Assembly (NCBI GenBank): GCA_964035545.1
Contig: OZ037765.1
Coordinates: 33,665,504 to 33,729,503 of the forward strand
Direction of reading: 5' to 3'
Length of the DNA: 64,000 bases
Source: Bugula neritina
Taxonomy: Eukaryota > Animalia > Bryozoa
In this document: positions 1 through 31,577 of the stretch, one piece after another
Position numbering within the stretch: position 1 is the stretch's first letter
How the letters are laid out: the number at the start of each line of letters is the position of its first letter
Notes under the pieces: generated by a model
What the model saw: the letters and a program-made list of their open reading frames with translations, nothing else
The model's database searches: none
Told to the model about the DNA's origin: nothing
Position numbers and translations under genes: made by a program

Positions 1-90
1 TGTTGGGTTTGAGAAAAACTGAATTTAGCTAGAACTTTCATTTTTAAAATTTATATTTATTCACAAACGTGGTTATCATTTATATATATA

Positions 91-230
91 TGGAATATGA
101 AATGGAGAGCAATAAACTTGAGTTCATGGCAGCAGACAGCTGACAACAGAGCTGCGTGGAGAGCTGCAACCAAATTTAAGCCTAATCCATAAAACAGTCA
201 TAGTCGTATCGACTGACTGCAAGAGAGATA
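91..230 (+). mobile_element. Probable 5'-truncated non-LTR (RTE-like LINE) 3' fragment inserted in a (TA)n tract
   Basis: Reads WNMKWRAINLSSWQQTADNRAAWRAATKFKPNP*, resembling the W-x3-A-x-D/N-R-x2-WR motif at RTE ORF2 C-termini. Flanked by tatatatata on both sides. Confidence 0.4.
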
Positions 231-301
231 TATATATATATATTTAGATGTCAATTTTGCTACAAATTAATGTGGATATGAGTTATGTGCAGTGAGTGCA
301 C

Positions 302-812
302 TTCCATGCTTTACCAGGTTGTGATTAAATTAGCACTTTTATGGAAAAAAAAGAAACCAATTTATATTCCTTCTTGAAAAACCATTCAGAATGTGTTGAA
401 AGCTTTGAACAGCTTGGAAAGTATACTTCAAGTCACAACTGCACCTACTTAAATAGAAAGTTTGTAAATAAGCAGAGATGATGTTTGATATGCTTTATTC
501 TGTTCTCCAACAAAGATGACTCAATAAAATTTGCAGCATTCCCCACAAAAATGAATTTATGCTGCACGTAATATATTTATCAAACAGCCACCAAGAGAAG
601 GGCAACAATTGCTTTTGTCAATACACCATTTCCAGATTATTATGAGTAGAAATTGTTGAGAATGGCAGCATCACTATAAAATGACTGACTCAAGCCCGTG
701 TGCCCAAAAATGCATTGAAAGACACATTATAATGCTGCTGCAATACATTCTGATATGAAAAACAAAAATTTCAAGTGCACTGGTGTAGGTCAATGCAAGG
801 ATTGTCTAAACA
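302..812 (+). pseudogene. Decayed relic of an invertebrate transposon-associated protein C-terminus (XPG/PIN-like H-A-x2-GCD motif plus Cys-rich tail)
   Basis: Broken frames give FHALPGCD* at 302-328, then ESFEQLG, YALFC, EFMLHV..YQTA and FKCTGVGQCKDCLN in the expected order. Many stops and frameshifts. Confidence 0.4.
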
Positions 813-1616
813 GAAGATACTTTGGAAGAAAATACACAAATGAAATTAATGACAGTTATATATAATTATGGTAAGAAAACTATGTACAATAAAACACTAC
901 GTTGAAACATCTGTTATATAACTTGCTTCAAACAAGAAATTTTACAATATATACATGTTTCAATCATCCCAATATTTTTGTGATCTTGAAATAAATTTAA
1001 AGAATCTTGTTACTTTTTACAGATATTTAGTGATTACCGCCAGATCAATAGAAGACTCATTTGGTAGGTTCCCAAAAGATGTCAACATGTAACCATAGTA
1101 TATGTCTTTTAAACACTTAATTCTTTGACACATCAGCATAAAAAGCTTAGGTGATCTTACATAACTAGCTTCTTTAATAAACTTATTACGTAGGCTTCTC
1201 CCAAATGTATTAAGTATCATCCATATAGCAAACATGTAATTTGATTGACAACACAGTTTTGAATTGAATAGTGTTTTAAAATTTATAAATTCAGAATCAG
1301 TGTAGAAATATAAAAAAGAAACAACAAATTTTAGTTTCTCACCTACTTTTACTGTTTTTATAGAAGGCTGGTTATTAGTGGATGCTATTCTGCACAATCC
1401 TCGTTTACTTTTATTACCCATTTAAGATGCCAACTTGCTTTTTTGCAATAGCTTGAGTTAAAATAAAGATAGACTTTTAGAGTATGTAAATTTGGAATCA
1501 GCACAAACTGTTGATCTAGAAACAACTATTTTTGAGTGGCCACCTAGTAAAGTGTAATGAGGTGAGTTTTTGAGCACTTTTTGGGAGGTTACTTCTAAAC
1601 TGACACTGAACAGTCA

Positions 1617-3740
1617 GGTTGTGTACAGGTAATATGACTACGCTTTGTATCCTGTATATTATTTTACATACTTTAAGTGGTGTATATATATATATATATT
1701 AAAGAGAGGTAATAGTGATATTGTGAAGTAGTAATAAACATGTGACACACAAACCTCTCAGGTAGACTGGATATACCACAGTGACTCATATTCAACTGTT
1801 TAAGTGATGTGAGTGATGACACATCATCTGGTACTCTGTTGAAAGTATTGTATCCTATGTCTAGTATCTCTAACTGAGTCAGCTGAGAGAAACTGTAATA
1901 AAAAGTTATACTATGACAAGAGAATAAAATTACACATAACATGTAGTTTATGCAGAAAAGAGATATACATGTGACCACAACTGATATTTTACAAATATAT
2001 TATTGGTTGTTTGTCAAAGTCATAATATCCCGGTTAACCTGGTGGCCTTAGCACCTAATATGATGCCAAGGCCACCAGGCCACTATGATACTGGGTTTTT
2101 TCTTGCACGTCATAATATCAAAAATGCATGAATTACTCATGAAATTATCACGAGTCCTATAAATTTTATTCATGGTCATTTGAGAGGAGGGCTCTAAATA
2201 ATTGCACTCTGCCCTTACTATTTAATTGTATATAACACAGGGAACCCAGGCTGAGTACAGAGATTATAGACACACCCTATAGCCTGGATACTATTTTATA
2301 TACTATATAAGTTGTGTATAAATATAAGTTACAGAGTAGTTATAATAACGATGTTGTGAAGTAGTAATAAACATGTAACACACAAACCTCTCAGGTAAAC
2401 TGGATATATCACATCTATACATATTCAACTGTTTAAGTGATGTGAGTGATGACACAACATCTGGTACTGTGTTGAGAGGATTGTCTCTTATCTCTAGTAT
2501 CTCTAACTGAGTCAGCTGACTGAGACTGTAATATAAAGTTGTACTATGACAAGAGAATAAAATTACACATAACATGTAGTTTATGCAGAAAAGAGATATA
2601 CATGTGACCACAACTGATATTTTACAAATATATTATTGGTTGTTTGTCAAAGTCATAATATCCCAGTTAAACAGGTGAGTTTAGCACCTAATATGACGCT
2701 TACAAATAAACTGGGTTTTCGTGCATGTCATAATATTAAAAATGTTTGATGCACATATGAAATTTTCACGAGCCTTAATAATTCTCCCTATGGTAATTCG
2801 AGAGGAGGGCTCCCTAAATAATTACACTCTACCCTTACTATTTAATTGTATAACACAAGGAACCCAGGCTGGGTACAAAGATTATAGCACCATCCTATAG
2901 CCTGGATATTATTCTATATACTATATATAAGTGTGTATAAATATAAGTTACAGAGTAGTAAAAATGATGTTGTGAAGTAGTAATAAACATGTGACACACA
3001 AACCTCTCAGGTAGACTGGATATTCTACATAAACTCATATACAACTGTTTAAGTGATGTGAGTGATGACACAACATCTGGTACTGTGTTGAGAGTATTCC
3101 CTCCTATGTGTAGTATCTCTAACTGAGTTAGCTGACTGAGACTGTAATATAAAGTTATACTGTGACAAGAGAATAAAATTACACATAACATATGTATTTT
3201 GTGCAGCACAGAGATATGCATGTGACCACAACTCCGTATTTTACAAACACATTTTGATTATTTGTCAAAGTTGTGTCCCAAATAAAGCTTTGACTTTAGC
3301 AGCTCATAGTATGACTACTGCAAATTTACTGGGTTTGCTTGTGCATGTCAAAATATTAAATATGTTTGAATCACTTATGAAATTTTTATAATTCTAAACA
3401 TGGTCATAATTACACTCTACCCTTACTATTTAATTGTATAACACAGGGAACTCAGGCTGAGTACAGAGATTATAGTCACACCCTATATATAGCCTGGATA
3501 TTATTTTATATACTATATAAGTTGCGTATAAATATAAGTTACAGAGTAGTAATAATGATGTTGTGAAGTAGTAATAAACATGTGACACACAAACCTCTCA
3601 GGTAGACTGGATATACCACATTCACTCATATTCAACTGTTTAAGTGATGTGAGTGATGACACAACATCTGGTACTGTCTTGAGAGTATTCCCTCTTATGT
3701 CTAGTATCTCTAACTGAGTCAGCTGACTGAGACTGTAACA
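1617..3740 (-). repeat. Tandem duplication of an exon+intron unit, four LRR exons, period 591-633 bp
   Basis: Exon 3' ends lie at 3595, 3004, 2388 and 1755. The flanking intron sequences are clearly homologous. Confidence 0.92.
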
Positions 3741-4788
3741 TGAAGAAGTAGCCATATAGATTACACTAGTGCTGTATAGTGTAACAGTATAGTGACACAT
3801 AATGTATGTCTACTATAAACTACATAACAAATTCATATCTAAATCATATCATGAGTGGAAGTGCTCTGACTCAGTTATACTCAACTAAATACTCACTTAT
3901 TCAGACTCTCCTTGTCAGTTATATCACGGAGTACCAAACAGACAGCATGAGAAGCAATCTCTCCTATATTCTTAGGAGTTGTCCCCTTTAACTTGAGGTG
4001 AGTGAGTTGATAACTCCCAACTTGAGTTTTCACTTCACTCAAAGTATATGATTTGGTTGTAGCATCGTCTACATCTTCCAAGTCTACAGGATCCTGTCCA
4101 GAATGTCTGAACCAGATTCTGAAACTCTCTGTAACAACACAGAGATAGTATTGTTCCTATACAGATGCTGTAACTAATGCTTATAATATTATAAATCTGT
4201 GGCTACACTTTCTTTTTACCACAACTTTATCACAGCCAGTTAATGCAGGTTGAATAAATACAGATGGTTCACAGTGTATTCTACTTCATGTAAAAACATT
4301 TTGGGGATCTCTCAATAATCATGAAAGTATAACTACCATAGTATCTGATAAACTCAACATAATTAGCTCTGTACACGTGACATGCAGTTTAAAGAGGCAA
4401 TTATTGGGAGTATTTTTAATTGCAGTGGTGACTATTTAAATCTATATAACTACATAACTAATGTCTGTGATACAAACATGTGGCTACTGGCTATACCATT
4501 CTCAATCAAACTTTTCTCACAGTATAACTGTATAAATTGTTAGAGTTGGTTTTATATAAGGTTTGCTACTTCATCTAATAATGCATAATTTAAAATACTC
4601 TGAAGGTGTGCATTTTGATTTACAACTGAAGTATATTAAAGGTTTAAAGTCAGTGAATTGTGACAAGTGTTGTATTTTCTACATTAATAAGCCATTCGAT
4701 TATTTCCTAAGCGAAACGAGAGAGCATACAAATATATCTGAGAGGATTGAAAATATCACAAACGGACATACTACATACCTGAAGACAT
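1755..4788 (-). CDS. Leucine-rich repeat protein, 5' part only (continues toward or past the window start; C-terminus not seen)
   Basis: Phase-consistent exons on the minus strand: 4788-4779 (ATG TCT TCA G), 4128-3897, then four 138-nt phase 2-2 exons 3732-3595, 3141-3004, 2525-2388 and 1892-1755. All junctions are GT-AG. Each 138-nt exon encodes two 23-aa LRRs (LSQLTQLEILxIxxNxLxxVPDVV / SSLTSLKQLxMxxCxISSLPE). Confidence 0.88.
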
Positions 4789-5062
4789 GGTGTTATTCTG
4801 TAATGAGTCAACAAATCATTAGCCAATCATATCAGACCTTCAATAATGCCTCTACTATCCATTACAAGATTGCATAATCTTCTACATGCTGGAAATATAC
4901 AACAACAATAATATTATGACTAATTTCAAGTTATAAAATACTGAAAACACATGTATTTTGTATTATAAAATGCTATCAATTAATATAACATATTATAGTC
5001 TTTGTAAACTTTTGATACAAATCTCAAAATTTCCTATCAAACCAGTTGTTGAAACTCTAGTT

Positions 5063-5895
5063 GTAAAACCATCAACATATGAGGGTATAAAACTATCAAC
5101 ATATGAGGGTGGTATAAAACCAACAACATATGAGGGTGGTATAAAACCATCAACATATGAGGGTGGTATAAAACCAACAACATATGAGGGTGGTATAAAG
5201 CCAGCAACATATGAGGGTATAAAACCATCAACATATGAGGGTATAAAACTATCAACATATGAGAGTGGTATAAAACTAACAACATATGAGGGCATATAAA
5301 ACCATCAACATATGAGGGTGGTATAAAACCAACCATATGTGAGGGTATAAAACTAACAACATATGAGGGTGGTATAAAACCAACAACATATGAGAGTGGT
5401 ATAAAACCATCAACATATGAGAGTGGTATAAAACTAACAACATATGAGGGCATATAAAACCATCAACATATGAGGGTGGTATAAAACCAACCATATGTGA
5501 GGGTATAAAACCATCAACATATGAGGGTATAAAACCAACAACATATGAGGGTGGTATAAAACCATCAACATATGAGGGTATAAAACCAACAATATGTGAG
5601 GGTATAAAACTATCAACATATGAGGGTGGTATAAAACCATCAACATATGAGGGTGGTATAAAACCATCAACATATGAGGGTGGTATAAAACCATCAACAT
5701 ATGAGGGTGGTATAAAACCAACAACATATGAGGGTGGTATAAAGCCAGCAACATATGAGGGTATAATACCATCAACACATGAGGGTATAAAACCATCAAC
5801 ATATGAGAGTGGTATATAACTATCAACATATGAGAGTGGTATAAAACTAACAACATATGAGGGTGGTATAAAACCAACAACATATGAGGATGGTA
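5063..5895. repeat. Minisatellite, 24/27-bp unit (aaaaccatcaacatatgagggt[ggt]at)
   Basis: Direct tandem units upstream of the LRR start codon. Confidence 0.95.
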
Positions 5896-7791
5896 TAGAA
5901 GCATTACATATTCAACCATCAAAGAATACAACAGAGTTACTGTAAATCTATTTTTTCAGACCACAGAGAGCATGATTGATATAGTAAGGAGTCAAAGTCA
6001 CATTTACATGAATAGAATGAATGACACTTCAGATAAACATGGAAATGGTTAGAATGTGAACTTGATGTCTCAACAATTGAAATATTGACCTTTGACAATT
6101 GGCCAGGCTATAAAATAACTGGACTCACATTGAAGTATGTGAATGAGGTAAAATAATAGCAATAAAAATACAACAAAAATGGTTGAACTTTGATTTTAGT
6201 GCTGAAATCCAGGATATCTTATGCATATATGCCAACAGCTATAGGTATGATCACACAAACAAAATTGTCCTCACCCTCCCCTAAAGTCAAGCCAATTGCT
6301 TGTAAATCATTGCACTTTCCATAGAGCATGCATTTTTACTTCATGACATTGAGTGACAAAGTAAGAACTTAGAAGAGCAGTTAAGAAAGTGATTAAAAAG
6401 GTGAGTTTCTAATCTCTAGTTGGAAACAAAATCAAAAGATAAAACTGCTGAAAATGATATGAAAGAAAGACCACTATTCAGCACTCTCAACCATGCATAT
6501 GCACAGAATTAAATACATAACTCATATCGGTCCATATACAAGTTCAACCTTTACCAATTTTCATACAGGAAAAATAACAAACCGTTCTATTCCAAATTTT
6601 TACACAACCTGCAATTTAAACTTCATTGAGCATCTAATGCTGAAGTTTCCATTCACACATTTAAAATCCAACCATTGCAATATTTTAGCAAAATTGTCAA
6701 AAATTAAAAGCTACAGGCAACAATAAAAATTACCCTTAGTTAAACTGGCCACATTTGGCTTTTGGCCACATTTTGCTTTTGCTTGGTCTATGATATTCAC
6801 AACATAATGTGCAACAGAAAGCTACATAAAAATACAATATAGTATACTAAAAGTAGATTTAATTCAGTGTTAATTATCATTAGTACCAACAGTAATACTA
6901 ATATAAATTGTGTAACAAATAATTTAAAAGGTTAAGTTTTTCATTTATTGCTGAGTTGCAAACTGAAACATCGACACCTAATTTATGCACATGCTCCATA
7001 GAGTGTGTAGTGGCTGTGAGAAGTATACCTCTCAGTACCCTCTACCAAACATTTACAGTATATTATGATGCAACTGATGTCTCAAGGATGACAACTCCTG
7101 TGCAGCACCACATCACTCTCTATGGTGACACCATCGGAACCTTATCTTAACTAATCAGGATCAACCCCTCATATATAAACAATGTCTTCTGGTGTTCAAA
7201 GCAGTCTAGATGATAGTTATTAGGCAGACAAGTTAACTTAAGTAACAACTACTGATGTATTCTTTCTCTTTTGCAATTATCTATGAGTTTTCTCGTGTAT
7301 AATTCAATATTAAAAGAGTTTTTTCAAAAAGCAATCAACTGGTTCGGTTCTTCACATAACCTCACACTGGATATGCAGTAATTGCTCGAGCACACAACAA
7401 CAGCTTCAAGAGTAGTACACAAAACTACAACAAGTGTAATAGGCATGACAATTATTCAATGTAAAAATCTAATTTCATATTATGATCATCATATTGATAT
7501 TCATTATCATGATGATTGTTTTTATCATTTTTATTTACGGGTTAATCAAACTTCTTGCAGTCGCATGACAGTGGGCAGTGTTGGAATGAATACACAAAAT
7601 TTTATTCGCTACACTTGCAGAATAAAAGTGAAATATATTGAATTATTAGATAAATAAGTTATTACTATAACCTATAACCATAAGTATAAGCATATAAATA
7701 TCAAACAAGTATCAAATGTGAATCTGAATATGTGACACTGACTTACACTTACACTTACAGTTAGTGTTACTGTTACAGTTAGTGTTACTAT

Positions 7792-8142
7792 TGTAGTGAG
7801 TAGTGCAAGTACAAATACAGGAATCGCCCTCTCCCTATTCTTGGAATACTTGGACTCTTATGTAGCAACCAATTAGCAGCTCCGGAAGATATGCTTCCGA
7901 GTCACGTGACACTTCCCGGGTTAATAAGATTATATCACGTTGTTGTAAGCGGAGGCTTGTAGTAGTAACATGTGTTAGTAGTTGACTCTTGTATAGGATA
8001 ATTGATGTGATGTTTGGTTTATGCTGTATTGTGGATAATAAATATACTTACTCGACAGCTACCTTAGTAATTGATAACAGAATAACCAGCTAACTATACG
8101 CAAGTAAATAACTCACGCTCAGTAATTGCACAAATTACTACA
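7792..8142 (+). repeat. 5' LTR of outer element
   Basis: TG...CA termini; matches 17109-17459. Confidence 0.96.
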
Positions 8143-8143
8143 G

Positions 8144-8161
8144 TGGTGGCAGCGGTGGGAT
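8144..8161 (+). promoter_or_regulatory. Primer binding site, tRNA-Leu (AAG/TAG type)
   Basis: TGGTGGCAGCGGTGGGAT, 1 nt after the LTR. It is complementary to the 3' end of eukaryotic tRNA-Leu (...ATCCCACCGCTGCCA-CCA). Confidence 0.88.
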
Positions 8162-8177
8162 CTTGCGTATAGCAGTC

Positions 8178-9128
8178 ATGGCAGAAGACGGCACGGAGCT
8201 ACCCATTCCACTGAATGAAGGTGAGAGAGATAATGTTGATATACCTGTGGAACCAGTGGTGTTAGATGAAGAAGTGAGAATTCTTAGAGAGCATGGTGAA
8301 GATAGATATCGGCTGAAGGCGCCCAACTTCACTGGCGAAGAAGCAGTGGAGCAGTTCATCCAAGAATTCCAGGATGTGATGGAGATTGCAGAATGGCCGC
8401 CAAGGGTGGCGTTGCTAAAGCTCAGGATGGCGCTGACGGGCAAAGCTAAGCCGTACGGAGCTGGACCTGACATAGACGGAATCTTTGCTTCCCTGCGGGC
8501 CCGTTTTGGCATCTCTCCCATAGATGCGCGGGCCCGTCTACAGAGGATGCGGCGTGATCCTCACACGTCACTAGAAGAGCACGCTGCCACGGTGTACCCA
8601 TTAGCGCAGATTGCATTCCGCGATCTGCCTCCGGTACACCGTGAGAGGTATACCTATGATGCCTTCGTGCAGTCCATCAACGACTTGGGGCTCCACCATC
8701 AACTCCAAGCGAGGGGAGTCACCACAGTCGAAGATGCACTTGCGGTGGGAGAAGCCTATCTCTTGGCGACTCATATGCACCGCAACCGCGTGGCCTCCCG
8801 CCAGGTGACCACGGAGCACTCTACTGCTCCCACCGAATTAAATGCGGAACCCTCCGCGGTGGCTAGTGTGAACCAGATGTCACTAGCGTCAAAAATCTCA
8901 CAGATGTCTGACATGCTAGATAAACTGGTCACCACATTAGCCTCCCCAAGCCAGGTAGATACTGCCCGTGAGCCTTGCGGGCCGCAGGTACAATCACCAG
9001 GCATGGGGCACCATTTCTGCTGGGAATGCGGAAGGCCAGGACATTTCCAGAGAAACTGCCCTCAACTCCCACCAGGGTTAAACTACCCCGGCCCGCAGAT
9101 GTTCCCACCTCCTGCGGGCCGTCTGTGA
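8178..9128 (+). CDS. gag: Gag of outer element, with CCHC zinc knuckle
   Basis: ATG at 8178. Capsid-like region (APNFTGEEAVEQFIQEF...W). Knuckle CWECGRPGHFQRNC. Confidence 0.9.
   Translation: MAEDGTELPIPLNEGERDNVDIPVEPVVLDEEVRILREHGEDRYRLKAPNFTGEEAVEQFIQEFQDVMEIAEWPPRVALLKLRMALTGKAKPYGAGPDIDGIFASLRARFGISPIDARARLQRMRRDPHTSLEEHAATVYPLAQIAFRDLPPVHRERYTYDAFVQSINDLGLHHQLQARGVTTVEDALAVGEAYLLATHMHRNRVASRQVTTEHSTAPTELNAEPSAVASVNQMSLASKISQMSDMLDKLVTTLASPSQVDTAREPCGPQVQSPGMGHHFCWECGRPGHFQRNCPQLPPGLNYPGPQMFPPPAGRL
9077..9121 (+). promoter_or_regulatory. -1 ribosomal frameshift signal (G_TTA_AAC plus 10-bp GC stem-loop)
   Basis: Slippery heptamer at 9077-9083 in the gag frame; pol is in the -1 frame. 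After a 5-nt spacer, CGGCCCGCAG (9089-9098) pairs with CTGCGGGCCG (9112-9121). Confidence 0.75.
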
Positions 9129-9501
9129 ATCACCCAGGGAGGCCCGCGCGTCTGTCGCCCCACTGGGCGCCGCGCGGAGATGCTGTGAAGTGGCGACCCC
9201 CGCGGCAAGTAGGCTCAAGCCACTCGCCGCCTGGGTCCTCTACGCCACTCCGGCACCAACACGGAGCCGGCAGACGGTTGACCACAGAGCCTGCGAGGGA
9301 AACGGTACAAGCGCCGCAAGGCGTACTGCCCCAACCTCGGCAGCTGGTCAATAGTCGCCGCCAACCGTGGACCCCTCGACCCACAGCGAGGGAGGTGCAA
9401 CCACGGCACACTCAATTGCAGCCGCACGGAAGTAGCTACTTCCTGCCAGGGAAGTTAGCCGGCAAGCCTGCCAACTTCCTCCTGGACTCCGGCTGCACCA
9501 C
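9083..9501 (+). CDS. pol: Outer pol, part 1 (up to aspartic protease motif FLLDSGCT)
   Basis: -1 frame to gag. Ends at the inner-element insertion right after LLDSGCT. Confidence 0.85.
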
Positions 9502-10052
9502 TGTCACAAATTCTGAGTGGACATATACCTATAGACTTACCGGGTTTTTCCTAATGATTATACACGAATGTTCATAAATATTCTAGACTGATCAAAGAGA
9601 TGGGTCATTGTTCATTGTTATTGTTTTCATTAGTCATGTTAACTACTGCCCAGCAATGTAAACAAGGTGTTGCGCAATAATTGCGAAATAACCATGGAAA
9701 TTCCAATGTTTTGTTTTGTTTTGATTTTCTATAAATAGTACTGGCATGTGGGGAATGTTTTGTACTAGAATCTTCTATACTGGAATGCTTGAGAATGTTC
9801 TAGAGTGTTTTGTTTACTATAAATACTGAGGCAGTTGTGTTTACGAATCAGTTCCTTTTTATAAGTTCATTCTCGGAGTTCATTTTTACAAATTCATCTG
9901 TGCATATCTTACTAGAGAAATAAAGTCTACTTTATATATCCACAACTCTATTTACTCACAACTGGATTAGCAAGCTGTATGCTACTTGTCTATACACTTC
10001 TGACTACCAGACTTTTCGAACTCGTCACACTGCTACCAACAGTTTTGTGACA
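9502..10052 (+). repeat. 5' LTR of inner element
   Basis: Matches 13355-13905; 9-bp terminal inverted repeat. Confidence 0.96.
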
Positions 10053-10054
10053 AT

Positions 10055-10071
10055 TGGGGGCTGCTCCGGGA
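10055..10071 (+). promoter_or_regulatory. Primer binding site, tRNA-Pro-like
   Basis: TGGGGGCTGCTCCGGGA versus the canonical tRNA-Pro PBS TGGGGGCTCGTCCGGGA (CG to GC swap). Confidence 0.75.
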
Positions 10072-10148
10072 AGTCTCAGTCGCACACAGGGAAGTTATTA
10101 GTTACAACGTGAGTATACACAGGATTAATTAACAGTTGTTGAGACATT

Positions 10149-13100
10149 ATGGCGTTGTTGGAGAGAGTGACACAGATGGGTAAAGATCTTGGACTGGTGG
10201 AGGACAAGCTCGTAGCTTTTGTTGAAAAGAACCTACCCATTGTTGCTGCACAAGAGGAAAAAGAAAAGGCACGAGAGGAAAAAGAAAAAGACCGAGAGGA
10301 AAAAGAAAAGGACCGAGAGGAGCGTAGATTAGAGCGTGAGGCGGAAAGGATCAAGCAAGAAAATGAGAAAGCCATAATGGAGATGAAGATAAAAGCTGAT
10401 CAGGAGGCAATGGCACTCAAGATAAAAGCTGACCAGGAGGCAGAAGAGAGAAGACAACAACATGAATTAGATATGGAAAAGCTGAAAGCTAACACAAGTT
10501 TGGAGCACTCAAGACATGAGAGCACCAGGTTAGAAATAGCTAACAAACCAAAACCAAAAATACCATTCTTTGATGAGAAGGTGGATGAAATGGATAGCTA
10601 TTTAGAGCGGTTCGAGTGGGTTGCCGAAGGATGTAACTGGGACAAGGGAGATTGGCCCTACCATCTCAGTCAGTACCTAAGGGGTACAGCAACAGAAGCT
10701 TACATCCGGTTATCACCTACCGACCGTAGAGATTATAAAAAAGTCAAAGAAGCCTTGTTGGAGCGCTTTAACTTGACTCAAGAGGGCTACAGAAAAAAGC
10801 TCAGAGAGGCAGAAGCTTACGAAGATGAAACTCCTGCCCAACTATTCACTAGGATAGAAACTTATGTGCACAAGTGGGTAGAACTTTCAGGGGGCATGGA
10901 CATAGCCAAACTAGTGGCGACTGAACAATTTATATCATCATGCCCAGACGACCTAGCTGTGCATTTAAAGCAAAGTTCCTACAACAGCAGTGAGGATATG
11001 TGTGATGCAGCGTCACTGTTTTTGCACGCCCGTGGAAGAAAACTAGCAAAGACAAAGAAAACTAATACAAAAAGGATGGAAAACACACCTGCCGGTAGCA
11101 TGAATGCTGAACAAGGAAGTAAAAGTGATGGTGCATGCTTCATCTGCAAAGATAAGTCACACATTGCTCGTAACTGCCCACGGCGAGGGAAGAAGTACTG
11201 TTCACATTGCAAGATGAACAATCACAATACTTCAGACTGCAGAAAATATGGTGGAAGGTCAGTACATGCTGCTGCTGCAATAGCGACTACTCAGAATAAG
11301 ACTATGGTCACAGATCCAGGAATGTCATCTAAAGTGGAAGAACCTACGGAAATCACAGTTAACGGTAAAAAGTTTGTCAACGCTGCTGTCTGCAAGAATG
11401 GACCTAAATTCAAAGATGGGGGCACAGCAATATTTGATGCGGAAGTTAATGGCCAACGAGCTACTGCAATGCGTGACACCGGCTGTGGTTGCATTGTAGT
11501 CAATGCAAAGTATGTGCAGCCTCAACACTTAACTGGAGAATCAGTTTATCTGAATATGGCTGATGCAAGTGTTAGGGAGGCTCAATGGGCACTTATCTCA
11601 GTACGCTCACCATTTTACAATGGTGTCGTCAAAGCTGCAGTAATGGACAAGACGATTTGTGACCTGCTTATTGGGAATGTGGATGGAGCGAGATCAGCTG
11701 ACCAGCCCCTGGAAAACTGGAAGGACTGCGCCGTAACCACAAGAGCTCAAGCTGTCAAGGAAAAGTCAGGAGACAAACCACTGATGGTTGATTCAAATGC
11801 TAACCCATTAAGTATAGGGAAAGATGAGATAGCCAGACTGCAGAGGGATGACCCCACATTGGAGCGTTTCTTCGATGCAAAAGAAGTGAAGGAGAAAAAG
11901 GGAGGCATCACTAGGTTTGTGGTGAGGAATAAGATTCTGTACCGTGAGTACACCGACTCGAAGTCTGTCAGTGTAAAACCTGTTAAACAACTCATGGTAC
12001 CCAGTTCACTGAGGAAGGAAGTTCTACAGAAAGCTCATGACTGCATAATGAGCGGACACCTAGGAGTAAAGAAAACCACTGATAGAGTGCTTTCCAACTT
12101 CTTCTGGCCAGGACTAAACGGAGATGTCGTACGTTTCTGTCAATCATGTGACATTTGCCAGAAGACGGTGAAAAAAGGCTCAGTCATGAAAGTTCCAGTA
12201 CAGGAAACACCACTAATTGACACCCCATTCAAGAGATGTGCGATAGACCTAGTCGGACCAATTAACCCTCCAAGTGAGAAAGGACACCGCTACATCCTAA
12301 CTTTAGTTGACTATGCTACAAGATACCCTGAAGCTACACCATTGAAGAACATTGACTCAGCTACTGTAGCTGAAGCGCTGCTTGACATATACAGTCGTGT
12401 TGGGATACCAGAGGAGGTGATAAGCGATCAAGGAACTCAATTCATCTCAGACTACATGAAAGAGTTTACCAGATTACTTGACATGCGGCAACTTCCTACC
12501 TCACCATACCATGCAATGGCCAATGGACTTGTGGAAAAGTTCAACGGAACCCTCAAGAGTATGTTAAAAAAGTTGTGTGCTAAAGAGCCAAGACAGTGGC
12601 ATCGGTTTATCAATGCGGCTCTATTTGCATATAGAGAAGTCCCACAGGAATCAACAGGCTTCGCCCCATTCGAGTTACTCTATGGAAGAACTGTGCGTGG
12701 ACCAATGTACATCCTGCGACAACTTTGGACAAAAGAAGACACTGCCGATGAAGTCAAGACCTGCTATCAACATGTTTTTGAATTGAGAGAGCGTTTAGAT
12801 GACATGATGGAAATGGCACTAGCTTCGCTAAAAGACAGTCAAAAAAGATACAAACACTATTTTGACAAGAAAGCTAAGCAGAGAGACTTCAAATCTGGTG
12901 ACAAAGTGCTCATTCTTCTACCTACGGATGGAAATAAATTGCTGATGCATTGGCAAGGACCATTCAATATTGAGGAGAAAGTCAGACTGAATGACTACAT
13001 TATCAACATTAGAGGCAAGAGGAGAACATACCATGCCAACATGCTGAAGAAATACTTTGAGCGGGAGACGCCTACCGACTCTATGACTGTTGGAGCTGTG

Positions 13101-13277
13101 ATGACTCTAGATGCTGCTGGTGCTGGAATTATTGATTACGATAAGGAAAGAGAAGGCGAAGATGATTTGTTGGATCTGTACAATAAGAAACAACAGAGTG
13201 ATGAGATGGAATATGTATTCACAAAACTTCAGAATCAAGGTGGAGTCAATCAAAGGAAAGGACAATGTTGGAGCTGA
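10149..13277 (+). CDS. Gag-protease-integrase polyprotein (1042 aa), no RT
   Basis: Coiled coil, capsid/SCAN-like region, two CCHC knuckles (CFICKDKSHIARNC, CSHCKMNNHNTSDC), protease AMRDTGC, IN zinc finger (H..GH...CDIC), DDE core (AIDLVGP, ISDQG, VEKFN), GPF module. Confidence 0.93.
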   Translation: MALLERVTQMGKDLGLVEDKLVAFVEKNLPIVAAQEEKEKAREEKEKDREEKEKDREERRLEREAERIKQENEKAIMEMKIKADQEAMALKIKADQEAEERRQQHELDMEKLKANTSLEHSRHESTRLEIANKPKPKIPFFDEKVDEMDSYLERFEWVAEGCNWDKGDWPYHLSQYLRGTATEAYIRLSPTDRRDYKKVKEALLERFNLTQEGYRKKLREAEAYEDETPAQLFTRIETYVHKWVELSGGMDIAKLVATEQFISSCPDDLAVHLKQSSYNSSEDMCDAASLFLHARGRKLAKTKKTNTKRMENTPAGSMNAEQGSKSDGACFICKDKSHIARNCPRRGKKYCSHCKMNNHNTSDCRKYGGRSVHAAAAIATTQNKTMVTDPGMSSKVEEPTEITVNGKKFVNAAVCKNGPKFKDGGTAIFDAEVNGQRATAMRDTGCGCIVVNAKYVQPQHLTGESVYLNMADASVREAQWALISVRSPFYNGVVKAAVMDKTICDLLIGNVDGARSADQPLENWKDCAVTTRAQAVKEKSGDKPLMVDSNANPLSIGKDEIARLQRDDPTLERFFDAKEVKEKKGGITRFVVRNKILYREYTDSKSVSVKPVKQLMVPSSLRKEVLQKAHDCIMSGHLGVKKTTDRVLSNFFWPGLNGDVVRFCQSCDICQKTVKKGSVMKVPVQETPLIDTPFKRCAIDLVGPINPPSEKGHRYILTLVDYATRYPEATPLKNIDSATVAEALLDIYSRVGIPEEVISDQGTQFISDYMKEFTRLLDMRQLPTSPYHAMANGLVEKFNGTLKSMLKKLCAKEPRQWHRFINAALFAYREVPQESTGFAPFELLYGRTVRGPMYILRQLWTKEDTADEVKTCYQHVFELRERLDDMMEMALASLKDSQKRYKHYFDKKAKQRDFKSGDKVLILLPTDGNKLLMHWQGPFNIEEKVRLNDYIINIRGKRRTYHANMLKKYFERETPTDSMTVGAVMTLDAAGAGIIDYDKEREGEDDLLDLYNKKQQSDEMEYVFTKLQNQGGVNQRKGQCWS

Positions 13278-13308
13278 TTATCTAAGCCGAATTGACTCAG
13301 AATTTTAA
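13186..13308 (+). pseudogene. Out-of-frame RNase H C-terminal remnant
   Basis: NNRVMRWNMYSQNFRIKVESIKGKDNVGADYLSR* matches the Ty3 RNase H tail R-x2-RW...G-x2-N-x2-AD-x-LSR. It lies downstream of IN, as in Gmr1-type order. Confidence 0.85.
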
Positions 13309-13354
13309 GTAGTTAGGAGAAATGATCAAGATAATTTCTCTTAGAATGGGGGGT

Positions 13355-13905
13355 TGTCACAAATTCTGAGTGGACATATACCTATAGACTTACCGGGTTT
13401 TTCCTAATGATTATACACGAATGTTCATAAATATTCTAGACTGATCAAAGAGATGGGTCATTGTTCATTGTTATTGTTTTCATTAGTCATGTTAACTACT
13501 GCCCAGCAATGTAAACAAGGTGTTGCGCAATAATTGCGAAATAACCATGGAAATTCCAATGTTTTGTTTTGTTTTGATTTTCTATAAATAGTACTGGCAT
13601 GTGGGGAATGTTTTGTACTAGAATCTTCTATACTGGAATGCTTGAGAATGTTCTAGAGTGTTTTGTTTACTATAAATACTGAGGCAGTTGTGTTTACGAA
13701 TCAGTTCCTTTTTATAAGTTCATTCTCGGAGTTCATTTTTACAAATTCATCTGTGCATATCTTACTAGAGAAATAAAGTCTACTTTATATATCCACAACT
13801 CTATTTACTCACAACTGGATTAGCAAGCTGTATGCTACTTGTCTATACACTTCTGACTACCAGACTTTTCGAACTCGTCACACTGCTACCAACAGTTTTG
13901 TGACA
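13355..13905 (+). repeat. 3' LTR of inner element
   Basis: Matches 9502-10052. Confidence 0.96.
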
Positions 13906-13910
13906 ACCAC

Positions 13911-15744
13911 CAACCTCCTTAGCCGTCAGTTCTTTGACACCCTCAGCGCTAAGGTCAAGGACAGGTTGGCACCGTACGAGGGGGATCACGGCACCTTGGC
14001 AGACGGGTCGTGCATTCCCTTCTACGGCATTATTGAGCTAACTGGTTACGTCCGTAACCAGGCCATCCAGGAGACGTTTATCGTCGGGCAGCTCAACGAG
14101 GATGCTATCCTCGGGATGCCATTCTTACAACGACACGGTTGTCGCATTGATTTCAGTAAATCTGCGATGATCATGGGCGACAAGGAGCTCGCTTGTGTCG
14201 ATAAGTTTGGTCGTCCTCTAGCGGGAGCAGTGCAGGTAGTACGGAGCTGTACTATACCAGGCCACTCCCGGGCTACCGTCCGCTGCAAGGTAGACGGTGG
14301 CCAAACCTCTAAGTTGGGAGTTGTCGAAAGTACGCACTCGAGAGTCCAACTTGCCCGTAGTTTTAGCCGGCTCACGGGGCAAGGAGAGATCTCAGTGCAG
14401 TGTGTCAACCCCTTCTCAGAGACAGTAGACCTACCACCCAGATCCATGCTGGGTCGCTTCCATCCTGTCCAGGAGGAAGCCATTGGGCCGTCGTCGGGAG
14501 CTACGACGGAAGGTCCTCAACAGAGCCCGTCTCAAGGGCGGAGGACCGTCCCAACCCACGCCTCCCCTCCTCCAGGGACGCGTGGCTGCACAGGCAACGG
14601 GAAGCGCCAGGCTATGGCTAGGTTGCCACATGGGTACAGTGAGGCGTTCAGCCACACAGACCACGGAGCCCGCCTAAATAGAGCAGGCTGCCGTGAGGTA
14701 CCGCGGGCGGCGAGGACCGCCCCTGCTCAGCCACTTCAACAGAGGGCTGACACGCCCCCGGAGGCTGCCCAGAGCCTCCGCGCCAAACCTGTATGGGCTG
14801 GTAACGTTAGGGAGCTGCCGAAGCTTCAGGAATGCCTTCCTGGGGTGGTAGCCGACGTGTACCGAGCGAAACAGGAGGGGCGACGACCCAGTAGTACACA
14901 ACGGCGACAGGGATGCGCCGAGTTACGGCTGTACTGTCAACGTTGGAGCTCTCTGCGGGTCGGGCCAGATGGTCTGCTAACCATGACCTTGGCCACCAAC
15001 AGCAGACAGCCAGCCAGGAAGAGGGTTGTCTGCCCAGTTGCCATCCGCCGGAAGTTGATACAAGACACTCACGAGGAGACTCACGGAGGAGTCCAAGGGG
15101 TGGTCACCAAGCTACAACTCCGGTGGTACTGGCCTAACATGGAACGGGATATCCGACGCAGAGTGAGACGGTGCAAAGTCTGCCAGACCAACAAGCATAG
15201 CCGTCTCCCTGGTAAAGTGGGGCGGCAGACGCATTGTGCGAGAAGGTCTCGGCAGGCGGAGACTGTCAACCTGGCCGGAAACACCTCCATGACACGTCAG
15301 GAAGACTTGGCGAGGCGAGAAAGGCCACTTCCGTCCTTGAAAGTGCGCCCACCGCCCCCAACGTCAAGCCTGCCATCATCACCACTTCCGGAACCAGAAA
15401 CAGGTCCGGAAGTGCAAAAACCCCCCGTGGGAGGGGCTCCGCAAGGAGATGCCAACATAGGACCAGCACCACACACTAGGCAACTTCCAGCGTGTCTCAG
15501 AGACTGTGTACGTGACCGCGGTATAAGCGGCAGTAACAAAAGTCTAGAGAGGCCTCGCGTAGGAAAACAGGCAAAGAGCCGTGGGAGTTGTGATCACCAC
15601 GAGAATCTCAACTTTTGCCTCGGCGGAATCTCACACGAGATTCATCCGCTGGAAGTGAAAAGCCCTAGTCACGTTTCACAACCACGCTGTCCGGTCTTTT
15701 CCTATGTTGATGCAGTCGAGAGTAGACGTGCCAGTAAACAGTAA
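13911..15744 (+). CDS. pol: Outer pol, part 2 (rest of protease, spacer, IN H2C2 zinc finger, degenerate tail)
   Basis: Removing the inner element and one TSD restores DSGCTTNLLS in frame. ILGMPFL protease motif and THEETHGG...WYWPNM...CKVC are present. No YxDD or DDE core. Confidence 0.85.
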
Positions 15745-15767
15745 TCAGATACCACTTTCATTCCAAA

Positions 15768-16815
15768 ATGTCTTACTATTCTGGATCGAAGGGTGAGTTA
15801 ATTATGTTTTTGGTACGATAACTAGACTGCATCAGTCAGCTACACTAGCTAGCTGGAGATTCGATAATGATAAACAGTGGTGGGAATACACGTCGACTTT
15901 GATTTTAAATAATCTGTCATAGCGAGTGTGTTCTCCATCAACTATTCATTAGCCTGAATCTCACGAGTGTAACTGAACAGAGTACCGGTCAGGCTGTACA
16001 CGCCGACGGTGTCTCAGTGTATAATCTTTAACACTGCTACTCTTTCAGATCACACTCGAGTGACCACCTCCCGGTCACGAGACCAGCCAACCTCTCTGTC
16101 TATGGAAGAAGAGCCTGTAATGGAGAATGGCATACCAGTAGTACTCCGCCGACGACACCGTTGGGTGTCAGCCACGACAGAGAGGAGAATTGAAGAAGCC
16201 TGGGGACCCAGTGGACCACACCGAACCTGCCAGGTCTGCTTTGAGGAGTGCCCGTCACACCGCTCCTTGCGTTTACATGTGGATGCCCATTTCCTACTCC
16301 ACTTCTGTCCCTGCGGCTTCCACGACGTCTACCCGTATCCCGTGACAGTACATAAGCTAAGCTGCTTCGCCGGAGAGAACCACACTGTTGATGAAGACAG
16401 TTTCCCCCTATACCTGGATGCCATCAAACCAGTCATCAGGAAGGCTATTACCCTGGCCGCACTAACGTCAGGGTTTCACGTACTGATACTATCTGCCCGC
16501 CATAAGTCCCCTATGGTTCAGGGCCCACCTCCTACCCCCGTCAACCCTAGCAACACCCCAGAAGTAGAAGAAACAACCATATCCCGTATCACGGAGACCC
16601 CCGTAACCCCACCAAGACCTAGCCAGCTGGCTAACGTAGAAGAGCGGCTTCTAAGACTGCAAGCCGAGTTCACACAACTTGCCCCTGACTTGCTGGATAC
16701 GACGACAGGTCTATACCAGTTGAAGGACTCAGTGGGACGACTGAAGAGGCGGCTACGGGCCCGACAGGCTCGACACAGAGCACGGTCGCTACAAGAAGCA
16801 GAGTCCAACCAATGA
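15768..16815 (+). CDS. Accessory ORF3 of outer element: tandem zinc finger plus coiled-coil protein (about 263 aa), probably two exons
   Basis: caaaATG at 15768, exon 1 15768-15792, donor G|GTGAGT, acceptor tctttcAG| at 16048, exon 2 16049-16815. The phase-1 join gives an in-frame GAT. C-x2-C-x12-H-x3-H, then C-x-C-x12-H-x3-C, and a Leu-heptad/basic C-terminus. Confidence 0.72.
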
Positions 16816-17108
16816 GAATGCCTGGGGTAGGCACCTTCGTTGAGCTATAGTTCGTTTAGGATATGACGAGCGCTCCGACATTGGCCCGCGTGCTGGTAAG
16901 CACCCTCTCTCTTAATAGCTGACTAGATGTGTGTGATCGATCACCCTGTTGTCTTCTAATGTAAACGTTGTCGTGTTTAACTATTTCTTTTCTTACTCTT
17001 TGTGGGTTTACTTATGAATATTTCCTTTTTGGATTATTGTATGGTTTTTCATTATGTTTTTTTATTATTGTGTTATCAGAAAGTAGGGCTTTCTGCTGGG
17101 GGGGACGG

Positions 17109-17459
17109 TGTAGTGAGTAGTGCAAGTACAAATACAGGAATCGCCCTCTCCCTATTCTTGGAATACTTGGACTCTTATGTAGCAACCAATTAGCAGCTCC
17201 GGAAGATATGCTTCCGAGTCACGTGACACTTCCCGGGTTAATAAGATTATATCACGTTGTTGTAAGCGGAGGCTTGTAGTAGTAACATGTGTTAGTAGTT
17301 GACTCTTGTATAGGATAATTGATGTGATGTTTGGTTTATGCTGTATTGTGGATAATAAATATACTTACTCGACAGCTACCTTAGTAATTGATAACAGAAT
17401 AACCAGCTAACTATACGCAAGTAAATAACTCACGCTCAGTAATTGCACAAATTACTACA
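17109..17459 (+). repeat. 3' LTR of outer element
   Basis: Matches 7792-8142. Confidence 0.96.
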
Positions 17460-25000: not shown

Positions 25001-28000
25001 AGTTGTGCCCCTTACTCACCATAGCTGTGTCTCCTACTCACCATAGTTGTGTCTCCTACTCACCGTAGTTGTACCCCCTACTCACCATAGCTGTGCCCCC
25101 TACTCACCATAGCTGTGCCCCCTACTCACCATAGCTGTGTCCCCCCCTACTCCCCATAGCTGTGCCCCCTACTCACCATAGTTGTGCCCCCTACTCACCA
25201 TAGTTGTGTCCCCTACTGGCCATAGCTGTGCCCCCTACTCACCATAGCTGTGCCCCCTACTCACCATAGCTGTGCCCCCTACTCACCATAGCTGTGTCCC
25301 CCCCTACTCACCATAGTTGTGCCCCCTACTCACCATAGTTGTGCCCCCTACTCACCATAGCTGTGCCCCCCCCTACTCACCATAGTTGCGCCCCCTACTC
25401 ACCATAGTTGCGCCCCCTACTCACCATAGTTGTGCCCCCTACTCACCATAGTTGTGCCCCTTACTCACCATAGCTGTGTCTCCTACTCACCATAGTTGTG
25501 TCTCCTACTCACCATAGTTGTACCCCCTACTCACCATAGTTGTGCCCCCTACTCACCATAGCTGTGCCCCCTACTCACCATAGTTGTGCCCCCTACTTAC
25601 TATAGTTTGGTACTCAGTTTAGTTTCAACTTTCAAGCCAGCTCAGTCAGTTGTAGTGACTAAGAATAACTCTCAATAAAAGTTAGCTATAGTAAGAATAG
25701 TAGTTTTATAATACTAGTTCAGAGTCTACTGAAAACATCATCAGTAAGTGGTGAGACATTTCAAACTAATTCAAGACGTGTTTGCGTAAACATTATTATA
25801 AAAACAAAATTATTTAAAGCAGTGTGTAGATGATTGCTAAGGTGTACATGAATATTTTAATGCTGGGTATATGAAGTGTGTCAGGGATTCTTTAAGAACT
25901 CTAATATTTAACTTTACATTAGAATGTCAGCATGGTGATCTAAGAATATGCTATAGAGTACTAAACTTTCAATAATTCAATATGGCCGATAGTTGGAATT
26001 CTCAACAGGTTTTTGGTTCATGTTTTTTAGAAGGAGAGAAAGTTCCATCTGGTGGATCAGATCCAATTTTGGCCTCAATACTTAACAATGACAACACAGT
26101 GTCTTCTGCACTCCCTTCTGCAGTGTCTTCTGCACTCCCTTCTGCAGTATCTTCTGCACTCCCTTCTACAGTATCTTCTGCATTCCCTTCTACAGTGTCT
26201 TCTGCACTCCCTTCTGCAGTGTCTTCTGCACTCCCTTCTGCAGTATCTTCTGCACTCCCTTCTACAGTATCTTCTGCATTCCCTTCTACAGTGCCTTCTG
26301 CAGTGTCTTCTGCACTCCCTTCTACAGTGTCTTCTGCACTTCTCAGTCCCGGCCCGGAGTCTTCCACAGCCCAAGATCAACCTTCCAAAACAGGTAAGTC
26401 TGTATCTCCTCCAATGACTGGATTAGACATATTTCGTTTACATTCAGTGCAATGATAATCCATACCTTTGGTTAGTTCATTAGTCATTTTATTTTAAACA
26501 TTTTAGCGAAACGTCGGCGTGAAGAGCAACCGTTGGCAGAAAATGAGTCAGTTGGTTCCAAGGCTAAGAAAGTCAAATCTGTTTCGTCTGCTGAATATTT
26601 CACACTCTGGTGCCAGCTGCAGTCTCAGCTGTTTCCTACCAAGTATGTCATTTTATGTTATATATACTATATGTTATATACTGTATGTTATATATATATA
26701 CTATATGTTATATACTATATGTTATATACTGTATGTTATATACTGTATGTTATATACTGTATGTTATATACTGTATGTTATATACTGTATGTTATATACT
26801 GTATGTTATATACTGTATGTTATATACTGTATGTTATATACTGTATGTTATATACTGTATGTTATATACTGTATGTTATATACTGTATGTTATATACTGT
26901 ATGTTATATACTGTATGTTATATACTGTATGTTATATACTATATGTTATATACTGTATGTTATATATATACTATATGTTATATACTGTATGTTATATATA
27001 TACTATATGTTATATACTGTATGTTATATACTATATGTTATATACTATATGTTATATACTGTATATAGTGTATATTATCAGTATACAGTATACACAGTGT
27101 ATCATCAGTATATAGTATATACTGTATATTATCAGTATATAGTATATACTGTATATTATCAGTATATAGTATATACAGTATATTACCAGTGTATAGTATA
27201 TACAGTGTATTAACAGTATATAGTATATACAGTATATTACCAGTGTATAGTATATACAGTGTATTACCAGTATATAGTATATACAGTGTATTATCAGTAT
27301 ATAGTATATACAGTGTATTATCAGTATATAGTATATACAGTGTATTATCAGTATATAGTATATACAGTGTATTACCAGTATATAGTATATACAGTGTATT
27401 ACCAGTATATAGTATATACAGTGTATTACCAGTATATAGTATATACAGTGTATTATCAGTATATAGTATATACAGTATATTATCAGTATGTAGTATATAC
27501 AGTGTATTATCAGTATATAGTATATACAGTGTATTACCAGTATATAGTATATACAGTATATTATCAGTATATAGTATATACAGTGTATTATCAGTATATA
27601 CAGTGTATTACCAGTATATAGTATATACAGTGTATTACCAGTATATAGTATATACAGTGTATTATCAGTATATAGTATATACAGTGTATTATCAGTATAT
27701 AGTATATACAGTGTATTATCAGTATATACTGTGTATTGTCAGTATATAGTATATACAGTGTATTATCAGTATATAGTATATACAGTATATTATCAGTATA
27801 TAGTATATACAGTGTATTATCAGTATATACTGTGTATTGTCAGTATATAGTATATACAGTGTATTATCAGTATATAGTATATACAGTGTATTATCAGTAT
27901 ATAGTATATACAGTATATTATCAGTATATAGTATATACAGTGTATTATCAGTATATACTGTGTATTGTCAGTATATATATTATATTTTGACAGGGAGGAG

Positions 28001-30570: not shown

Positions 30571-31190
30571 CCTTACATGTTTCATTAGGTTTTTGAGTCT
30601 CAATTTGTTTTGTGCTGTAGGTCTTAGTTATTGCTGATGTGTTATGAGCATTTCATGGACAAACATGTTTCATTTGCATATACTTTACATCCTTATTCTC
30701 AACCTTGTATATATTTTGTAGTCATTCTTGTTTGCGTTCTTGCCATTATGTAGTTTTATTCAAAGTTGACAATTCCTTAGTGTACATTCTCACACAATAG
30801 TGCCAGTGTCTAATATGCAATCTCCAAACGTTTATATTTAAACTTATTTTACTAAAATAAATCATAGTGCAGTATTTTAATTTCTAGGTCGGGTTCACTT
30901 CATCTTCTATTTCATAAGCCTAGACAGTGTTTGTCATATTACACAGGCTTTTAGTTTAGCTTATAGTTGCTAGTTAGACTCAGCACAGAGTTTAAAGTCA
31001 CTTAGTACCCTTCGGTTATATACACATTAAACTCCTAACCACTGCACTCGTGACCCCAAACTTTGTGATGCATCTACTAAGTTGTTTCTAGTTCTGACCA
31101 TGGGGTATTTTTTAAATGTAAGAGTGTAAATAATTTCTCATATAATCAATTTTCCTACCTTCTAGCTACAAAAAGCAGGTTGTAATAATT

Positions 31191-31577
31191 GGATCCACGA
31201 CTATTTGAAAATGACAATTGGACAACACCTGTTTGGAAAATGGACAAGTGGAAAATTAACATCTGGAGAATGAAGAATATTCAACATGGCCTAGTCCAGA
31301 GGGGCGTTTAGTATCTGGTCGGTTTCAAAATAGCCTATTGTAAATGTGAACAATTTTAAAATAGAACTACTCGGTAACTAATTCTACTTCCATGATAGCC
31401 TAACTGATACGGCCATTATAACTATTTTTATATAAAGCTACTTTGGAATTGACCAGATACTCAATAAGCTCTCTGGACTAGACCTGAATATTCTTCACTT
31501 TCCAAATGTCTTTATTCTAATTGTCCATTTTCCAAATAGGTGTTTCCCATATGTCATTTTTGAAATGTCGTGTCACC
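31191..31577. mobile_element. Degenerate palindromic (foldback/MITE-like) element
   Basis: Long imperfect inverted arms, e.g. gaagaatattca/tgaatattcttc, ctagtccagag/ctctggactag, tttggaaaatggacaa/ttgtccattttccaaa. No clear TSD. Confidence 0.6.

Follow-up and report, generated by a model that had tools for sequence, protein, structure and literature searches.

Organisation of the LRR gene

The window, that is, the whole 64,000-nucleotide stretch of Bugula neritina DNA that was analysed, carries on its minus strand four LRR cassette exons (E1-E4), two exons upstream of them (N1 and N2) and a probable last coding exon (T). These features, the introns of the array and an open frame beyond T are as follows.

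4779-4888, minus strand: N1, a mostly untranslated exon; ATG at 4788-4786 plus three codons; donor GTATGT, phase 1
3897-4128, minus strand: N2, a 232-nt exon of about 77 residues; phase 1 in, phase 2 out
3595-3732, minus strand: E1, a 138-nt phase 2-2 cassette exon with two 23-residue LRRs
3004-3141, minus strand: E2, a 138-nt phase 2-2 cassette exon
2388-2525, minus strand: E3, a 138-nt phase 2-2 cassette exon
1755-1892, minus strand: E4, the final 138-nt cassette
1893-3594, minus strand: the three homologous introns between the cassettes (453, 478 and 495 nt)
1600-1754, minus strand: the intron after E4, 155 nt, its first ~110 nt homologous to the other introns
1458-1599, minus strand: T, the probable last coding exon; 46 codons, TAA at 1460-1458; predicted splice from E4
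1017-1421, minus strand: an open frame of 134 codons that continues the frame of T beyond two stops

E1-E4 had been described in the first-pass annotation as four 138-nt phase 2-2 LRR exons, and their coordinates, splice sites and phases all proved to be as claimed: each exon has a CAG acceptor, a GTTTGT donor and phase 2 at both ends, and encodes two 23-residue LRRs. The motifs quoted for the four exons (DIRGNT/HIGGNT/EIRDNP/DIGYNT and NMSECG/YMSLCR/NMYRCD/NMSHCG) were read exactly as given, the GAA/TTA/AGA/CAC codon was located at codon 37 of 45, and recounting against E1 returned the same numbers of amino-acid-changing and silent codons (6/1, 7/1 and 8/1). The description of the framework as almost invariant holds for E1-E3, which differ at 2 of 99 bases per pair, and less so for E4 (7 of 99), which has extra framework changes at codons 1, 17, 19 and 23 that are absent from most other copies. 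GTTTGT is a non-consensus donor; it stands at all four cassettes (3594, 3003, 2387 and 1754), is conserved in the family ORFs described below, and could bear on exon skipping.

Each of the four exons matched LRR families in Pfam with E values of 1e-7 to 1e-5, and three of them passed the gathering cut-off for LRR_4 or LRR_8, E2 falling just below; the match is beyond chance. In a search of the PDB, the cassette repeats aligned in register with SHOC2 (E 5e-18). As judged from these alignments, the cassettes belong to the LRR superfamily and are of the 23-residue SHOC2-like type. A cassette on its own was predicted with low confidence (pLDDT 58), and that model was set aside. The duplicated unit consists of an exon plus an intron (591-633 nt). 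The three inter-cassette introns are alike close to the exons and diverged in the middle, in keeping with the earlier remark on mid-intron divergence: they differ at 11-14% of aligned sites as a whole, and 52 of 154 columns are variable in the most diverged middle part. All four exon copies lie on one strand, the window holds no fifth copy and no inverted or orphan cassettes, and no inverted repeats were found in positions 1-12000.

Upstream of the array, in-frame stops precede the ATG of N1, and an RNA-like contig from run X12 covers 4780-4888 with 3 differences; runs X7, X8, X10, X11 and X12 were typed as RNA by guess, none by record. N2 also has cover in RNA-like runs, and its homologues share 80, 59, 58 and 29% identity with it. 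An AlphaFold2 model of N2 reached a pLDDT of 86.5 with strands at residues 3-8, 41-47 and 63-67, and an N2 profile matched LRR proteins in the PDB (best E 1e-4). This confident fold together with the PDB profile matches suggests that N2 is likely an N-terminal cap with about two degenerate LRR-like strand-helix units. N2 matched no Pfam family, fold searches with its model returned no match (best Z 3.6; best E 0.67), and comparison of its profile with the cassette profile gave nothing. A death-domain reading of N2 was not accepted, the match to FAS being weak (E 0.36), and three long matches, to S-layer, Ig-like and fungal repeat proteins, were dropped as chance. By hand translation, a loose end in run X10 joins the end of a cap exon of this kind to a cassette, and one in run X12 places the start codon of a paralogue six residues before the conserved IWF motif.

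Spliced together, N1, N2, E1-E4 and T give 936 nt encoding 311 residues from ATG to TAA with no internal stop, and all introns of the model are GT-AG; the entire gene is probably inside the window. Provided that T is the last exon, the 311-residue model has neither a signal peptide (N-terminal 11-residue hydropathy maximum -0.35) nor a membrane helix (top 19-residue hydropathy 0.77). No NACHT or NB-ARC domain was found N-terminal to the LRRs, where the ATG lies 80 codons before E1 with no Pfam match, and Pfam returned no ROC-COR, NACHT or death domain anywhere in the gene model. The gene thus likely encodes a small cytosolic binding protein comprising the putative cap, eight cassette LRRs and a short tail. 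Rfam gave 0 matches in positions 1-8000.

Several other features surround the gene. A 27-nt minisatellite of 32.6 copies occupies 5064-5911, just upstream of the first exon found. At 7792-17459 lies an LTR retroelement with two identical 351-nt LTRs, a gag with a zinc knuckle and an integrase zinc finger; inside it, at 9502-13906, is a second LTR element whose 552-nt LTRs are identical and whose one frame, of 1044 codons, holds a SCAN-like gag, a protease and an integrase, with no reverse transcriptase among the matches listed. Both elements are gypsy-type and very recent, and lie 2.9 kb upstream of the LRR gene. A weak Pfam match to BORA_N at ~51500-51620 on the minus strand (E 0.0014, below the cut-off) probably marks an exon of an aurora borealis gene. 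Together with the spliced, AT-rich LRR gene and the gypsy-type elements, this match fits an invertebrate animal.

The cassette family and variation at the x positions

A protein search with E1 returned 53 matches, 43 of which were close exon copies with 73-89% identity. These 43 ORFs were called across the cassette and its flanking intron and may include alleles of several individuals; four contig sizes recur among them, suggesting that there are arrays elsewhere. The multi-copy nature claimed in the first-pass annotation is borne out by these copies, which contradict a single-copy invariant locus. For site counts, the 40 ORFs that aligned without indel were combined with the four window exons, giving 44 copies, and three ORFs were left out for an indel, a truncation and a degenerate start. 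All 44 cassette peptides are distinct, and the family has at least dozens of distinct cassettes.

In the DNA-like run X1, summed depth was ~113,000-144,000 over the cassette framework and ~28,000-32,000 over T, compared with ~100-137 for long single contigs. The resulting cassette-to-T ratio of ~4-5 to 1 is like that of the window's gene and is not a copy number; since overlapping contigs were summed, the depth is read only as pointing to a family of probably hundreds of copies. In the reads, most copies fall in subfamilies other than that of E1, with majority differences at codons 9, 16, 22 and 32, so the family has subfamilies beyond that sampled by the protein search. Loose ends at 1787 in runs X1, X7, X11 and X12 mark a second, common class of cassettes whose second repeat ends differently. 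An exact 22-base pattern matched no locus in contigs of metagenomes, genomes and viruses, and an alignment scan gave 1 locus from 90 candidate stretches, which at 47% identity was taken as an unrelated LRR.

The x positions line the concave sheet in LRR structures, as stated in the relevant passages of PMC11378527 and PMC3341825. We chose 12 x positions from the LxxLxLxxN/CxL motif and used the 33 others for comparison. Over the 44 copies, mean entropy was 1.70 bits at the x positions and 0.31 bits at the others, a contrast reached in 0 of 100,000 permutations, so that the concentration of variation at the x positions noted earlier from four exons extends across the family. Variation is uneven among the x positions: 8 and 31 are nearly fixed and 14, 36 and 37 are saturated, position 14 taking 11 different residues across copies. 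We further compared 113 pairs picked for likeness of the upstream intron, whose near-identical translation differed by 12%; in these pairs, differences amounted to 53% at x positions, 7% in the framework and 18% in the downstream flank, which was unselected. Among nine variable sites, 0 of 36 pairs were associated at p under 0.05.

Codon models were fitted with our own code to the four exons (three for the intron yardstick), with no recombination term. On the four exons, omega_x was 14-16 (LRT 21-24) and an omega of 1 was rejected on all three trees; M1a versus M2a gave LRT values of 22-28, likewise on all three, and the framework omega was 1.6 in this fit, not below 1. These omega values are inflated because silent divergence is low, the framework differing at 2 of 99 bases as against 11-14% in the introns. 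Measured against the introns between E1-E3, omega_x was 3.55 (p 0.0002); against their most diverged middle part it fell to 1.76 (p 0.09), and x positions differed significantly from the whole intron in 1 of 3 pairs. The proposal of diversifying selection therefore stands under the codon models and the whole-intron yardstick, and is less firm under the mid-intron one: selection for diversity at the x positions is well supported by these sequence comparisons, and its strength is uncertain.

The first-pass annotation had also proposed exon-level conversion or shuffling. Low divergence of the framework, silent sites included, points to homogenisation centred on the exons, or to constraint. Between E3 and E4, 2 of 100 bases upstream and 14 of 136 bases in the exon differ; this mismatch of flank and exon could, like the unlinked variable sites, reflect exon exchange, but selection alone can give the same. 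Taken as a whole, the earlier interpretation is partly supported. None of the contrary outcomes named in the annotation (x-position dN/dS of 1 or less, an exon tree that simply tracks the intron tree, a single-copy invariant locus or no transcription) occurred.

Splicing and the end of the gene

Runs X8, X10 and X12 cover the exons, with hardly anything in the intron bins; in X1, all 30 bins have cover. Exact 138-nt exon-to-exon joints were found in X7 (4 contigs), X11 (1) and X12 (5), which come from three studies, and none in the DNA-like X1. The shorter side of the joint is 81 letters in X7 and 25-26 letters in X11 and X12, and only the joint of X7 exceeds 31 letters on both sides. These RNA-like joints belong to the family, not provably to the window's locus: cassettes are spliced exactly to each other in the family, and transcription, too, is supported at the family level by the exon-only cover and the joints. 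A joint of 1892 to 3595 is not readable as exon skipping, because any paralogue's cassette-to-cassette joint maps in this way.

T was not included in the first-pass annotation. It begins behind a CAG acceptor, its orientation and phase fit E4, and DNA-like and RNA-like runs alike cover it at high, multi-copy depth. An unspliced contig of run X7 spans 1565-1780 and contains cassette, intron and T together, and the arrangement is therefore present in another sample. In a search limited to proteins of at least 82 residues, T had four homologous ORFs (67-73%), in which likeness begins exactly at the acceptor and is preceded by unrelated sequence. A phase-0 reading of T was rejected as incompatible with the phase-2 donor; the homologous ORFs use the phase-2 frame. 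T matched no Pfam family and no solved structure. Taken together, T is the probable last exon of the gene. The expectation of a C-terminal ROC-COR, death or NACHT domain to the left of the window is so far unsupported, as T with its stop at 1458-1460 follows the array by 155 nt, and neither T nor the 134-codon frame, the two segments scanned, had a Pfam match to ROC-COR.

Other observations bear on how the gene ends. In four runs, no contig linked a cassette donor with the acceptor at 1599, against ~20 contigs with cassette-to-cassette joints, and some RNA-like contigs have upstream of T ~300 letters that are not on the cassettes. Among the differences listed for T, 3 of 17 are silent against 24% expected, and on these differences T shows no sign of protein-level constraint. 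The four homologous ORFs continue past the window's TAA to stop in three different frames after 83-112 residues, so the tail of the window's gene copy may be decaying. An RNA-like contig of run X12 runs on from the end of a cassette (loose end at 1748-1755), through letters matching the first intron bases, into 255 letters that start, by hand translation, another LRR type, which suggests longer family members or an intron-less relative. Searches with T, the cap exon and the cassette gave 16, 19 and 105 candidates, respectively, with no longer fused form among them, a weak negative because the gene callers there ignore introns.

Within the 134-codon frame beyond T, part of T recurs in degenerate form 67 codons downstream. 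An open run of this length is expected at a given position with a probability of ~2e-4, and other minus-strand open stretches in positions 1-1600 reach at most 60 codons; the frame had no Pfam or PDB match.

Known LRR systems and the possible function of the family

The tandem, equal-length, symmetric phase-2 LRR exon design of Ectocarpus and Tetrahymena is present in the Bugula gene, with exact joints in its family. In Ectocarpus, ROCO and LRR-only loci carry tandem equal-length phase-2 LRR exons, and the type I exons share with the cassettes positive selection at the concave face, an immune role there being a candidate only, as given in excerpts of PMC3341825 and PMC11378527. By the same excerpts, the Ectocarpus exons are 72 nt long with one repeat, whereas those of Bugula are 138 nt with two; the ROCO proteins have a ROC-COR domain, whereas none was found here; and inverted or non-coding intronic LRR exon copies occur, whereas the window has none. 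The LRR genes of the ciliate Tetrahymena with 90-bp exons, for whose expansion unequal crossing-over has been proposed, resemble the Bugula gene, so far as excerpts of PMC6564038 go, in being very many and young, with exact-length exons, phase-2 introns and mostly no membrane helix; they differ in carrying one 30-residue repeat per exon, as opposed to two of 23 residues here, and mostly purifying selection is reported for them gene-wide. The scallop proteins CfLRRop1-6 are likewise LRR-only invertebrate proteins and proposed pattern-recognition receptors; six genes are described for them, and the excerpted description in PMC5877582, on which alone the comparison is made, mentions no cassette exons or hypervariable face.

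Proteins with a similar repeat but other architectures were also compared. SHOC2 and LRRD1 (PDB 7txh, 9ijj and 9fqr) share the 23-residue cytosolic repeat type, in register, a likeness to the repeat consensus that does not imply orthology. TLRs and LRR surface receptors have a signal peptide and a membrane helix, unlike the Bugula model if T is the last exon, and NLRs have a NACHT or NB-ARC domain before the LRRs, which the Bugula gene lacks. SHOC2 and LRRD1, moreover, are conserved single-copy scaffolds. Lamprey VLRs (PDB 2o6s and others, E 1e-10) vary at the LRR strand positions that also vary here, and their germline gene is incomplete, with a signal peptide and flanking donor cassettes. 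VLRs are described in the excerpted PMC5877582 as secreted or surface-anchored and somatically assembled from an incomplete gene, in contrast to the Bugula gene, which is complete and intron-containing, without a signal peptide or orphan cassettes in the window. A literature search, from whose scope most subscription journals fell outside, found no account of a large effector-less cytosolic family of two-repeat-cassette LRR proteins in an invertebrate. Brown-algal ROCO and Tetrahymena LRR genes already have the cassette design, and its invertebrate two-repeat version would be what is new.

On balance, we slightly favour the reading that the locus belongs to a large family of spliced genes composed of interchangeable LRR exons with two repeats each, and encodes a cytosolic binder of ~311 residues whose concave face would be diversified to recognise changing foreign proteins. 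The exon-plus-intron unit would multiply by tandem duplication through unequal crossing-over, exon-centred gene conversion would keep the framework and flanks alike and re-deal the variable codons among copies, and selection would favour new residues at positions 11, 13, 14, 16, 34, 36, 37 and 39. Since the model has no signalling domain, the protein would act by binding, and might, in the cytosol, block or tag a protein from a parasite or microbe, or else signal via a separate partner. The repertoire would be inherited, as many genes times about four cassettes, rather than built per cell. It is the pattern of variation alone that suggests an immune role. More tentatively, and as a possibility we hold in some doubt, hundreds of genes for small, effector-less cytosolic LRR binders might form an inherited, antibody-like intracellular library, with about a thousand two-repeat cassettes being continually re-dealt from gene to gene by conversion and possibly exon skipping, and with each protein directly neutralising or tagging a foreign protein.

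The working members of the family could instead be LRR receptors of greater length that end in a ROCO-, LRR-death- or kinase-like signalling domain, with the locus serving as a shortened copy or a cassette reservoir, or splicing past T to exons beyond the left edge of the window. We regard this as rather unlikely, even though the cassette-to-T joint is unseen, RNA-like contigs carry the non-cassette letters upstream of T, T is seemingly unconstrained, LRRD1, an LRR-and-death-domain protein, is among the closest solved relatives (E 2e-16), and brown algae, in the excerpts of PMC3341825 and PMC11378527, have LRR-only loci beside ROCO genes. Against it, T follows E4 closely in fitting orientation and phase, also in another sample, the X1 depth ratio, though not a copy number, is like that of the window's gene, and fused forms are missing among the candidates inspected, the last point being weak for the reason given above. 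That cassettes are re-dealt within the individual, by somatic conversion or combinatorial exon skipping, so that each cell or zooid has its own receptors, seems very improbable: the symmetric exons, the identical and weak-looking GTTTGT donors, the near-identical flanks and the unassociated variable sites would suit it, but the locus is a complete open gene and not an empty frame with donor cassettes, inverted or orphan cassettes are absent from the window, germline exchange accounts for the same data, and the joint of 1892 to 3595 is how any paralogue's cassette joint maps.

The cause of the diversity can be questioned as well. Any arms race is expected to leave the same signature, and the diversity could serve a conflict not involving pathogens, such as colony or gamete self/non-self recognition or the binding of transposon proteins; a cytosolic location suits transposon or selfish-element targets, and two nested LTR elements with identical LTRs lie upstream of the gene. 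Allorecognition and gamete proteins are mostly surface-exposed and encoded at few loci, whereas the model lacks both a signal peptide and a membrane helix and the family has many copies, and we consider such a conflict improbable. Drift without selection for diversity, in which young duplicated exons have a constrained and homogenised framework and freely drifting x positions, appears more improbable still: the mid-intron p value, the suppressed silent sites and the inflation of omega by multi-base codon changes speak for it, but omega_x exceeds 1 with every yardstick (1.8-16), differences are three times as frequent at x positions as in the unselected downstream intron flank, and neighbouring x positions 8 and 31 are nearly fixed while 14, 36 and 37 are saturated.

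If the reading of an inherited family of cytosolic binders is true, Bugula would provide an animal example of a hugely expanded inherited repertoire that is intracellular and carries no signalling domain of its own, and would show that the design seen in brown algae and ciliates, with phase-2 LRR cassettes of exact length, arose again. With a nearly fixed framework and about 8 of 46 positions varying, the family would also be nature's equivalent of engineered LRR binders, and a single genome with hundreds of copies would make it possible to test what drives such arrays, whether selection, conversion or splicing.
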